A stretch of 64,000 nucleotides of DNA from assembly GCA_963784045.1 (NCBI GenBank), contig CAWAPZ010000003.1:174143-238142 (forward strand), given 5' to 3'. Position numbers and translations under genes: made by a program. Numbering within the stretch: the stretch's first letter is position 1; every line of letters begins with the position of its first letter. The notes under the pieces were generated by a model. It made no database searches. It saw only the letters and a program-made list of their open reading frames with translations, and had not been told where the DNA came from. Of the stretch, positions 45,472 through 47,537 are shown one piece after another. The stretch is from Vicinamibacterales bacterium. Lineage in GTDB: Bacteria > Acidobacteriota > Vicinamibacteria > Vicinamibacterales > JAMQPK01.

Positions 45472-47537
45472 TACATTCTCGGTGGTACGGCAATGCCCAT
45501 GAGATCAAGCGCGCGCGTCAGCTGCGCACGCACGTACGCCACGCCGGCGGCGCGCCAGAGCCGGGCGGCCGCCTGCTCCTCGTTGAGGATCGGATACCGA
45601 TGATAAAAGCCGTTGAACATCTGTGCCAGCCCGAACGCGTATTTTGCGAGCACCGAGAACTCCAGCGTCCGAACGACTTGCTCGACGATTTCATCGAGGC
45701 GCGAGGCTTCGAGGATGAGCGCCCACAAATCATGGCTGCCTCCCTCGCCAGTCAGCTCGGCAGCGTCGATCTCGCCAAGCGTCGCAAACACCGCGGCTTC
45801 GTCGACCTTGTCGCGGTCGCGCAGCTTGGCCAAAATGTTCTGGGCCCGAACGACAGCATACTGTAGATACGGGCCGCTTTCACCCTCGAACGCGAGGGCT
45901 TCGTCTATATCGAAGGCAATGATCTTCGTGCGCGAATACTTCACCATGAAATAGCGCACCGCGGCGACCGCGATCATGTCGGCGATGCGCCGATGCTCCC
46001 CGGTGGCGAGCTCTGAATTGCGCCTGGCCACTTCGGTTTCGGCGCGCGCGATGAGGGTGTCCAGCAGGTCATCGGCCTTCACGCCCTGTCCCTTGCGACC
46101 CGACACATCGACGAACCCGCGCTTGTCATCGGCCGCATCGGCGGCGAGGTATCCGAGCGCTCGCGCTGCAGCGTTCGAGAGTGCCACCATTTCGTACGAG
46201 AAGTGCGTTGCCCGCTCGGCTTGCTCGGCGTAGCCAAGAGTCCGAAGCGCCTGTTTCAGGAGCTTCTGAAGATACGATTGCCGCACATCGATGACGTTGT
46301 AGGTCGCGTCGGCGCGGCCGAATGGGGGATGCGAAGCATCCCCGGGTGTCTGCGAAGTCGACCACAGGACTTCGCCGTTTGTCCGGGTTCCGAACCGGCA
46401 ATAGTAGAAGTCGCGCCCCAACAGCCCGAGCTTCCAGAACTGATAGGCGATGTCCTTGCCGACGTACGTAACGGTGCCGTTCGATCGGACAATAACCTTT
46501 TCGCGTTCGCTTTCTCCGCTTTCCCTAATCCCTAATCCCTCATCCCCAATCCCTAGTCCAGCATCTCCAATCCCTAATCCCACATCCCCAATCCCTTCAG
46601 AGGCAGGCTCGTCCTCCTCGATCTTCATGACCCAGCAACCAGCCAGTTTGCCTTCAGTCTGGAAATACACCGCGCCTTTCTCTTTCAAGATCTCGAAGGC
46701 CCGCGCCCAGAACTGCAGCCGCAGAATGTGGCCTTCCCACGTCAGAAGGTCGTAATCCACGTTCAGCCGCGCCATCGTCTTCAGGTGGCATCGGACGATG
46801 CGTTCGGCGATGAACGCGGCAATGTCTGAGGTCGCCGTGCCGCCGTGCTCGATATCGTGCAACGTCGCCGTGCGAATCTTGAGGCGCTCTTTGTCTTCGT
46901 CGTACCACTGCGTAACGCGCGCGTAGAGATCCCAGCAGTAATAGTCGAACCGCGTCGAGTCCGCGATGGCGCGGATGTCCTCGATCGTCTTGTCTTCGAG
47001 CTCGCGAAATCCGACGACGACGTCGGCCACCTGGACGCCGGTGTCGTCGATGTAGTTCTGCACCTCGACGGGAACGCCTCGGAAGCGCTGCACGCGTACG
47101 AGCGTGTCGCCCAGCGCGGCATTGCGAATATGGCCGATGTGCGCCGCCTTGTTCGGGTTGATGGCCGTGTGCTCGACGATGGCTTTTTGGGGTCTGACCC
47201 CCGTACCGGTACGGGGGTCAGACCCCGATGGCACGACTTTCTTGACGAAGGCGATGCGATCTAAATAGATGTTCAGGTAGCCGTTCGGCGCGGCCTCGAC
47301 GCGAACGACGCCGTCCAGAGGCCCGAGGGCCGCAGCGAGCTCCTGTGCGATGACGCGCGGCGCTTTGCGCAGGCGGCGCGCAAGCTCGAAGGCCACGGGC
47401 GTTGCGAGATCGCCGAGCTCGCGCTTCGGCGGATATTCGATCGGCAGTTGTGGCAGTGCGTCAGGCGGCACCTGATAAAGGTGCTGAAGCGTCGTCGATA
47501 ACCGCTCTCGCAACTGTTCGTGAATTGGAAGAATCAT
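45471..47537 (-). CDS. argS: Arginine--tRNA ligase, carrying two unusual in-frame inserts
   Basis: 688 aa. HIGH-type motif [10 protein letters not shown]; class I core; C-terminal anticodon-binding domain ending in M. Confidence 0.93.
   Translation of the reverse strand: [688 protein letters not shown]
46523..46599. repeat. 7-bp tandem array inside argS, 11 units: CCCTAAT CCCTAAT CCCTCAT CCCCAAT CCCTAGT CCAGCAT CTCCAAT CCCTAAT CCCACAT CCCCAAT CCCTTCA (+ strand)
   Basis: Read directly. The G-rich strand is the argS mRNA. Encodes [25 protein letters not shown]. Confidence 0.95.
47189..47226. repeat. Perfect 38-nt palindrome (19+19) inside argS
   Basis: GGGGTCTGACCCCCGTACC / GGTACGGGGGTCAGACCCC. 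The arms are exact reverse complements with no spacer. Confidence 0.95.

Follow-up and report, generated by a model that had tools for sequence, protein, structure and literature searches.

The argS gene of a soil Vicinamibacterales bacterium encodes the essential enzyme arginyl-tRNA synthetase (ArgRS; arginine--tRNA ligase) and contains, within its reading frame, a tandem array of about eleven 7-nucleotide (nt) units of the GGGATTN family. The gene is located on contig CAWAPZ010000003.1 of assembly GCA_963784045.1, in a stretch of 64,000 nt that was analysed as a whole and is called the window here. Coding tandem repeats are known, and the in-frame heptamer array in the loop of this synthetase is one instance of a class-wide habit. 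The array is likely to be a genome-wide heptamer microsatellite that was seeded into a permissive, disordered loop of ArgRS, with in-frame slippage, filtering of stop codons, and a peptide that is carried as a passenger.

The proposed course of events consists of several steps. Genomes of the class Vicinamibacteria (Acidobacteriota) would provide the background, being rich in tandem 7-nt arrays that occupy mostly short spacers. The GGGATTN / NAATCCC family would have been seeded in a long acidic disordered loop between two beta strands of the ArgRS catalytic domain, a host site that would tolerate almost any length and sequence. The array would then grow and shrink by replication slippage or unequal recombination. 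Since 7 and 3 are coprime, only changes by a multiple of three units (21, 42, 63 nt, and so on) would keep the essential argS in frame. Selection would remove the unit variants that create stop codons, which would lead to codon-phase-specific units and a 21-nt super-period and would favour in-frame slippage. The GIGDxGL peptide would be a tolerated passenger, and the G-quadruplex potential of the array would be a by-product of the unit sequence.

The argS gene, its array, and the host loop

The open reading frame (ORF) of argS is uninterrupted over 688 amino acids (aa). Its product contains three Pfam domains, all above their cutoffs: PF03485 (Arg_tRNA_synt_N, the N-terminal Add1 domain), PF00750 (tRNA-synt_1d, the class I catalytic domain), and PF05746 (DALR_1, the anticodon-binding domain). 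It also scores 480.6 bits against the NCBIfam equivalog NF002447 (cutoff 460) and 306 against TIGR00456 (cutoff 261.65). The array claimed to lie in frame within argS is thus located in a genuine and intact gene. The best solved relative found by HMMER is P. horikoshii ArgRS, 2zue (E = 2e-87), and the T. thermophilus ArgRS structure 1iq0 is also matched (E = 1e-71). The HIGH signature of the Rossmann fold is present at aa 127-139, and H133, G135, and H136 are invariant or nearly so in alignments. The HMMER alignment to E. coli ArgRS covers the C-terminal half only, and the named Ins2 domain of that enzyme comprises residues 258-311 (PMC3956977). When compared to the closest relative, L161, a soil metagenome contig from the European Nucleotide Archive with 93% nt identity in argS, the gene has 102 synonymous and 31 nonsynonymous codon differences. 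On the evidence of these sequences, argS is functional and under purifying selection. A pseudogene, which the earlier note had considered as a possible flaw, is rejected, since nothing interrupts the ORF and nonsynonymous changes are far fewer than synonymous ones. No further ArgRS-like sequence or second argS is present in the 64-kb window.

The array reads TCCCTAATCCCTAATCCCTCATCCCCAATCCCTAGTCCAGCATCTCCAATCCCTAATCCCACATCCCCAATCCC on the plus strand. Tandem Repeats Finder (TRF) describes it as period 7 with 10.7 copies, 70% matches, and a score of 73, and describes it better as period 21 with 3.6 copies, 83% matches, and a score of 108. The array matches itself best at lag 42 (identity 0.91), with lower values at lag 21 (0.83) and lag 7 (0.71). 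The eleven units counted previously correspond to about 11 heptamers, two of which are degenerate (GAGATGC and TGGACTA). The family was searched with the degenerate pattern CCCNAATCCCNAATCCC, which covers two and a half units, at two or fewer mismatches, and the expectation was taken from dinucleotide shuffles. The window contains 19 matches against 0.13 expected, and seven of the 19 are inside the argS array, which is real and far beyond chance. The G-rich strand of the array is the mRNA (sense) strand, its GC content is 52% compared to 63% for the window, and the encoded peptide is a GIGDxGL-type repeat. The translation given in the earlier note agrees exactly with that of the ORF.

As 7 equals 1 modulo 3, consecutive units take the three codon phases, and all frames give one cyclic 7-aa peptide. 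Pure arrays have a stop codon in each of the frames, which is TAG for GGGATTA and TAA for CCCTAAT. In the ArgRS loops, units that end in TTA are absent among the 16 that start at codon position 2 and make up six of the 17 that start at codon position 3. The phase-2 units of the window are GGGATGT, GAGATGC, and GGGATGA, which supply V, A, and E at the variable position of GIGDxGL. The 21-nt super-period results from this codon-phase specificity of the unit variants, and would bias slippage toward frame-preserving registers. Codon usage follows the DNA unit as well. Glycine is encoded by GGG or GGA in all ten array codons, compared to 15 of 44 in the rest of argS, and leucine by TTA or CTA in all three array codons, compared to 3 of 64 elsewhere in the gene. 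Together with the lower GC content, this usage points to a DNA-level origin of the array and to weak or no selection on the encoded peptide.

The part of ArgRS that accommodates the array is a hypervariable acidic loop. The HMMER alignment to 2zue is interrupted between query residues 308 and 348, opposite residues 310 and 321 of the chain. Among 91 diverse full-length ArgRS cluster representatives, the segment equivalent to query residues 305-347 ranges from 4 to 36 aa with a median of 16, and the 43 aa of the window ArgRS exceed all of them. The alignment break and the loop length place the repeat within an insert relative to other ArgRS, as had been proposed. The composition of aa 307-346 includes 13 aspartate and glutamate, 2 lysine and arginine, and 11 glycine residues. 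The structure was modelled with AlphaFold2 (AF2) from a diverse alignment of 90 sequences, since 46 close homologs (78-95% identical) alone gave a mean predicted local distance difference test (pLDDT) score of 54.5 and were unusable. The model has a mean pLDDT of 91.9 and a predicted template modelling score (pTM) of 0.93. Its Foldseek TM-scores, normalised by target length, are 0.84 for 2zue_A and 0.87 for 1iq0. The sole segment of the model with pLDDT below 50 holds the repeat peptide and is flanked by two strands (Table 1). In the model, the repeat peptide leaves a beta hairpin of the ArgRS catalytic domain as a predicted disordered excursion, and the insert, which was to be checked for being a surface loop, is predicted as a disordered loop. 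An Rfam scan of positions 45000-48500 found nothing at the argS array.

Variation among relatives and arrays at other sites

The relatives comprise the 120 best protein hits, which are 76-93% identical to the query and whose named sources are all Vicinamibacterales or Acidobacteria, and 160 additional loci fetched from species-representative genomes and metagenomes, which are denoted by L-numbers. Loops were delimited by anchor-based extraction between flanking motifs. In these Vicinamibacteria the flanks of the loop are invariant, with GCWVM.I on one side and the RSNG(T/V) type on the other, and the segment from GCWVM to RSNGT is 29-91 aa long among about 160 loci. The loop is read through in frame in all of the approximately 280 related ArgRS sequences or loci where it could be delimited. 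No out-of-frame loop allele was seen, in a search that required an open frame across the loop and to which a few loci gave no match. The heptamer count at the argS site is 0 to about 11 units among relatives, and the array of the window is the largest intact G-type allele seen. L081, 7% distant from the window ArgRS, is without the array, and its loop reads IDEDDAPGEDEEGDEREK. The possibility raised at first, that orthologs have the same residues as conserved non-repetitive sequence, is not borne out, as the repeat residues are not conserved in them. The view that argS has accommodated a repeat family is correct in itself, with the amendment that this is not a one-off insertion and that the loop is hypervariable across the whole class.

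Clades were obtained from p-distances of ArgRS with the loop removed, using the unweighted pair group method with arithmetic mean (UPGMA). The clade of the window has GGGATTN units on the sense strand and peptides of the GIGDSGLGIG type. At the same position, a sister clade, about 30% distant and of the PIQED...RSNGV type, has sense-strand units such as CCCAAAT, CCCAACT, and CCCGAAT, and these are the reverse complements of the GGGATTN family of the window. The peptides predicted from pure arrays, PKSQIPN, PNSQLPT, and PESRIPN, match the sister-clade loops NPKSQIPNPKSQ, TPNSQPLPTPNSQ, and ESRIPNPESR. Acidic loops without heptamers occur in other clades and in basal members of both heptamer-bearing clades. 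The simplest reading of these sequences is that an ancestral acidic disordered loop gained the heptamer family at least two times, once per orientation, which suggests independent seeding in the two ArgRS clades. A single gain followed by in-situ inversion may be the alternative to two seedings.

The tempo of change is indicated by the comparison with L161. Six heptamers are absent from L161, and this 42-nt difference is the only indel in the whole argS between the two. The 14-kb syntenic alignment with L161 also includes a spacer heptamer array, in which the difference is a single 7-nt unit. The 42-nt coding change and the 7-nt spacer change show the expected contrast between coding and non-coding DNA, with one case of each. 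Only changes by a multiple of three units are seen in the argS array because other changes break the frame of the essential gene. The self-identity peak at lag 42 fits a recent 42-nt duplication, by which the window allele probably arose. For close relatives, separated by less than 5% in ArgRS protein distance, the loops are of unequal length in 12 of 19 pairs with heptamers and in none of the 10 without, and the recurrent steps are 14, 21, and 28 aa. Unit number varies between relatives, of which the indel against L161 is an example.

Other repeats are also found in the loop. L049 contains an array of a different heptamer, GAAAGTT, L100 contains a GEK repeat (GEKGEKGEK) with an apparent 9-nt unit, and L154 has GGPSASVA repeats in a 91-aa GCWVM-to-RSNGT segment. 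In addition, three metagenome-assembled genome (MAG) records, L002, L053, and L064, are titled 'uncultured Bifidobacteriaceae bacterium'. Their ArgRS are 65-84% identical to that of the window and have the same loop architecture, and the labels look wrong.

The GGGATTN family is present at five loci of the window, which are argS, uvrA, and three sites outside genes. The matches in window spacers confirm the earlier claim that the argS repeat belongs to the same family as the spacer repeats, and spacer arrays of this family are also present in sister-clade genomes. In uvrA (ORF 5288..8254, plus strand), the array is preceded by an acidic stretch, EPEEEDPES, and falls in a part of the protein (aa 161-210, roughly 50 aa) for which Bst UvrA 2r6f has a counterpart of only some 15 aa. 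The 24 nt located 5' of the two in-gene arrays, GAGGAGGACGAGCCTGCCTCTGAA in argS (46600-46623) and GAGGAGGAGGATCCCGAATCTGCA in uvrA (5833-5856), are identical at 18 of 24 positions, and both encode acidic EED/EEED-P-x-S. This identity could be due to chance from acidic codons or to a shared origin.

Period 7 prevails beyond this family. The window has seven strict period-7 arrays and none of periods 5 or 8-12. The 2.04 Mb of related loci contain 141 period-7 arrays, a count inflated by the argS loops themselves, compared to 21, 51, 44, and 35 for periods 5, 6, 8, and 9, respectively. About 12 spacer arrays are present in the 64-kb window, and most of the short spacers examined hold a heptamer array with its own unit. 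Many of these arrays are directly 5' of a start codon, without an obvious Shine-Dalgarno sequence between. In searches of open-access texts, no paper on heptamer or tandem repeats in Acidobacteria or Vicinamibacter was found. In the spacers of relatives, inverted pairs of arrays of one heptamer occur, such as (AAAATGC)n followed by (GCATTTT)n, which could form long hairpins. L019 has a GGACTCG array in frame at 21064-21092, in the linker that follows the receiver domain (aa 15-125) of a response regulator, at about aa 177-186, which is further evidence that coding loops and linkers of this class accept heptamer arrays.

A second repeat-bearing site in ArgRS is the linker between the Add1 and catalytic domains. 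In the window, part of this linker is encoded by a perfect 38-nt palindrome, GGGGTCTGACCCCCGTACC-GGTACGGGGGTCAGACCCC, which as RNA has a folding energy of -38.4 kcal/mol (z = -6.1). The palindrome is unique in the window and is present at the same site in L001, L013, L081, L083, L084, L091, L094, and L161, sometimes with an expanded centre. Rfam matches it to a plant miRNA model only, and below threshold (30.8 bits where the gathering score is 69), as a generic hairpin. Other members of the window clade have arrays of the heptamers CGATCGA / CCATCGA in this linker, with peptides like DDGRSTIDDRRSTDD. These linker arrays indicate that ArgRS has two repeat-colonised loops.

Table 1. Coordinates of the features in the window and, where an L-number is given, in loci of relatives.
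Feature	Position	Strand	Details and source
argS, arginine--tRNA ligase, 688 aa, intact ORF	45471..47537	minus	ORF list, Pfam, NCBIfam, PDB matches, Foldseek
Hypervariable acidic loop, aa 305-347	46497..46625	minus	lies between beta strands 302-305 and 346-350
Predicted disordered segment, aa 311-340	46518..46607	minus	AF2 pLDDT below 50
Heptamer array in argS	46522..46596	minus	~11 GGGATTN units on sense strand (CCCTAAT-type on plus strand); TRF
42 nt (6 heptamers, 14 codons) absent from L161	46526..46567	minus	pairwise alignments; placement within repeat arbitrary
Putative G-quadruplex motif 1	46572..46595	minus	4 runs of three or more G; regex scan, ViennaRNA
Putative G-quadruplex motif 2	46523..46553	minus	5 runs of three or more G; regex scan, ViennaRNA
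Perfect 38-nt palindrome in argS	47189-47226	minus-strand gene	encodes aa 104-115
GGGATTN family inside uvrA	5857..5888	plus	in frame; GGGACTA GGGACTT GGGATTG GGGATGA, encoding AGTRDLGLGM
GGGATTN family, short array	8261..8284		just past uvrA stop codon; pattern search
GGGATTN family, ATCCCCA x 5.7	28214..28254		spacer, ends 2 nt before ATG; TRF, pattern search
GGGATTN family, TAGGGAT x 5	63912..63951		spacer, first TAG at end of upstream ORF; TRF, pattern search
Spacer heptamer arrays	12462-12502, 13151-13174, 14066-14086, 20219-20307, 35000-35106, 36977-37033, 41783-41804, 43444-43484, 61863-61893		units GAAAGTR, AACGGTA, AAACGAA, AAAAACG+GATTCCA, GAATCTA, GCTACCA, AATCTAG, CTGAGAG, GGAGAGC, GGCTTTA
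Linker arrays of CGATCGA / CCATCGA	L005 10331-10356; L006 10325-10354; L008 10314-10349		also L007, L014, L085, L087
Inverted heptamer array pairs	L112 52-123; L116 2230-2314; L151 2202-2302; L120 692-750; L028 9180-9304		spacers of relatives

Explanations of the array

In the account of a microsatellite seeded into a permissive loop, slippage would be the mechanism of array change and the repeat peptide would be neutral. Several points weigh against this account. The ArgRS loop is consistently acidic across the class, and the loop as such may have a function. Among close relatives, steps of 8, 9, 10, 13, 15, and 20 aa are also seen, which are not multiples of 7 aa, and thus other indel processes also act in the loop. 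The first entry of the family could have been by de novo slippage, by gene conversion from a spacer array, or by a heptamer-spreading activity. The clade analysis is based on UPGMA clustering of p-distances, not on a rooted maximum-likelihood tree. Moreover, the nearest sequences are 93% identical at the nt level, so that ongoing slippage is a presumption and the copy number is the one given by the assembly.

Another explanation is that the array is kept for a G-quadruplex (G4), formed by the argS mRNA or by the non-template DNA strand, that would regulate translation or transcription of argS. The sense strand of the array has nine runs of three or more G and two canonical G4 motifs (loops of 1-7 nt). 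The minimum free energy calculated by ViennaRNA is -18.5 kcal/mol with G4 allowed and -5.3 kcal/mol without, and the G4Hunter score is 1.36. In addition, the 64-kb window has five canonical G4 motifs, every one of which is an array of the GGGATTN family. The G4 potential in a coding region, which the earlier note had read from the GGG runs, is therefore upheld computationally, as two predicted canonical motifs on the mRNA strand. On the other hand, the sister-clade mRNA carries the C-rich strand, so no mRNA G4 is possible there, many close relatives have 0-4 units or none, and the copy number changes quickly. The C-rich mRNA of the sister clade and the scarcity or absence of units in many close relatives make a conserved G4 function in argS unlikely, and the maintenance of the array for such a structure is improbable. 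A lineage-specific predicted G4 effect may exist.

The array might also be a discrete mobile element, or part of one, that transposes in frame into genes like the Rickettsia palindromic elements, in the manner of a miniature inverted-repeat transposable element. The dispersal of the unit family over five window loci, two of them inside the housekeeping genes argS and uvrA, the similarity of the 24 nt upstream of both in-gene arrays, and the separate palindrome in another argS loop are in line with such an element. In contrast, the array is a simple direct tandem repeat in which terminal inverted repeats, a target-site duplication, and a fixed length were not seen. Its copies differ in unit number only, and the size differences from relatives are whole units. 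In every clade, with or without heptamers, the acidic flank is an ancestral part of the loop. These features leave little probability for a mobile element.

Selection on the (GIGDxGL)n peptide itself would make it a functional module of the enzyme, such as a repeat for binding or regulation, with the DNA periodicity as a secondary effect. The recurrence of GIGDSGLGIG in many members of the window clade and the constant acidity of the loop are consistent with such a module, and a heptanucleotide repeat number is known to tune the activity of the enzyme NeuO (PMC13001214). However, the reverse-complement array of the sister clade at the same place encodes an unrelated peptide (NPKSQIP / TPNSQPL), and on this orientation flip between clades a selected peptide motif is rejected. 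Close relatives such as L081 have no array at all, decayed arrays such as that of L094 gather both synonymous and nonsynonymous changes, the array codons track the DNA unit and not the usage of the gene, and AF2 predicts the segment without structure. A selected peptide is accordingly given very little weight.

An assembly artefact of the metagenome-assembled genome, in the array or in its copy number, is the least credible explanation. Assemblies are error-prone at tandem repeats, but argS, an essential gene of 2 kb, has an unbroken frame, and L161, the nearest relative, differs by exactly six units. Misassembly is rejected on the ground that dozens of independent assemblies from various projects, with contigs of more than 1 Mb among them, carry heptamer arrays at this exact argS site.

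A broader proposal, which goes beyond the seeding of one loop and is rather unlikely, is that Vicinamibacteria have an active, period-7-specific process that generates or spreads repeats, fills nearly every short spacer, and occasionally reaches permissive coding loops. If so, the ArgRS loop (hit at least two times and in both orientations), the Add1-catalytic linker, and uvrA would be footprints of this process and not of ordinary slippage. The process could be related to whatever makes the heptamer arrays in cyanobacteria and Beggiatoaceae, and a dedicated factor that binds heptamers may read the spacer arrays.

Significance and comparison with known systems

The argS loop offers a clean natural case in which the microsatellites of a genome remodel an essential enzyme in frame-preserving jumps. 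One ArgRS loop absorbs from 4 to more than 70 residues and is colonised by one 7-nt family in both orientations. Such a loop is a permissive insertion site that could be used for protein engineering, and the array, which evolves fast, can serve as a tandem-repeat marker to type uncultured Vicinamibacteria from soil. Annotators and assemblers should be cautious with coding tandem repeats in these metagenome-assembled genomes. The abundance of period 7 across an acidobacterial class is apparently undescribed and extends the question of why some bacteria accumulate heptamer repeats.

The closest mechanistic precedent is the O-acetyltransferase NeuO of E. coli K1, in which tandem 7-nt units in an ORF give a 7-aa repeat from every three units. 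Its coding AAGACTC repeat slips, and the full-length protein is produced only if the unit number is divisible by 3 (PMC13001214). Tandem 7-nt units in the coding sequence and whole-unit, frame-keeping copy differences are found in argS as well. NeuO differs in being encoded by a dispensable phage-borne gene with the repeat at the 5' end, where it acts as an ON/OFF phase switch, and it is out of frame in 65.6% of 64 genomes (PMC13001214). In contrast, argS encodes an essential single-copy enzyme, with an internal array in a loop of the catalytic domain, imperfect units, and a 21-nt super-period. For an essential single-copy gene, an ON/OFF switching role of the array is unlikely.

The Rickettsia palindromic elements are about 150 bp long, palindromic, and grouped in defined families, each of which encodes a conserved peptide (PMC10969869). 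As in Rickettsia, a genome-specific repeat is both intergenic and in frame in unrelated housekeeping genes at fold-compatible sites, here with five dispersed loci, among them the disordered loop of argS and, in uvrA, an insert relative to 2r6f. The palindromic or terminal-inverted-repeat architecture of fixed length is absent from the argS array, which consists of direct repeats in 0 to about 11 units and whose RNA fold is weak when G4 terms are left out. The analogy drawn at first with these elements holds for the shared outcome and fails for the architecture, the array being a direct tandem repeat and not a palindromic mobile element. A better analogue within argS is the 38-nt palindrome of the Add1-catalytic linker.

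The TAACTGA heptamers of Beggiatoaceae, Cyanobacteria, and Bacteroidetes are located mostly in spacers, often just 5' of start codons, and few are in ORFs (PMC4679880). In Beggiatoaceae, the repeats within ORFs mostly occupy protein termini or hypothetical proteins (PMC4679880). The layout of the window is similar, with heptamer arrays in short spacers, often beside start codons, and an enrichment of period 7. The window differs in belonging to Acidobacteriota and in having many unit families per genome instead of one dominant family. Unlike in Beggiatoaceae, the argS array is internal to a core enzyme, at a site that is occupied in two orientations across the class. The TAACTGA unit is not among the units of the window, which include GGGATTN, GAAAGTR, AAAAACG, GATTCCA, AATCTAG, GGCTTTA, CTGAGAG, and others. 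The STRR sequences of cyanobacteria are a further group of such spacer heptamers, on which a literature search gave one Nostoc preprint and otherwise unrelated papers.

Disordered, fast-evolving inserts of biased composition are also present in the surface loops of enzymes, including tRNA synthetases, in Plasmodium and other repeat-rich genomes. These inserts are eukaryotic, AT-driven, and mostly homopolymeric or trinucleotide-based, and they stem from repeat dynamics at the DNA level. The argS array differs from them in belonging to a high-GC bacterium and in being built from a 7-nt unit that is read in all three phases.

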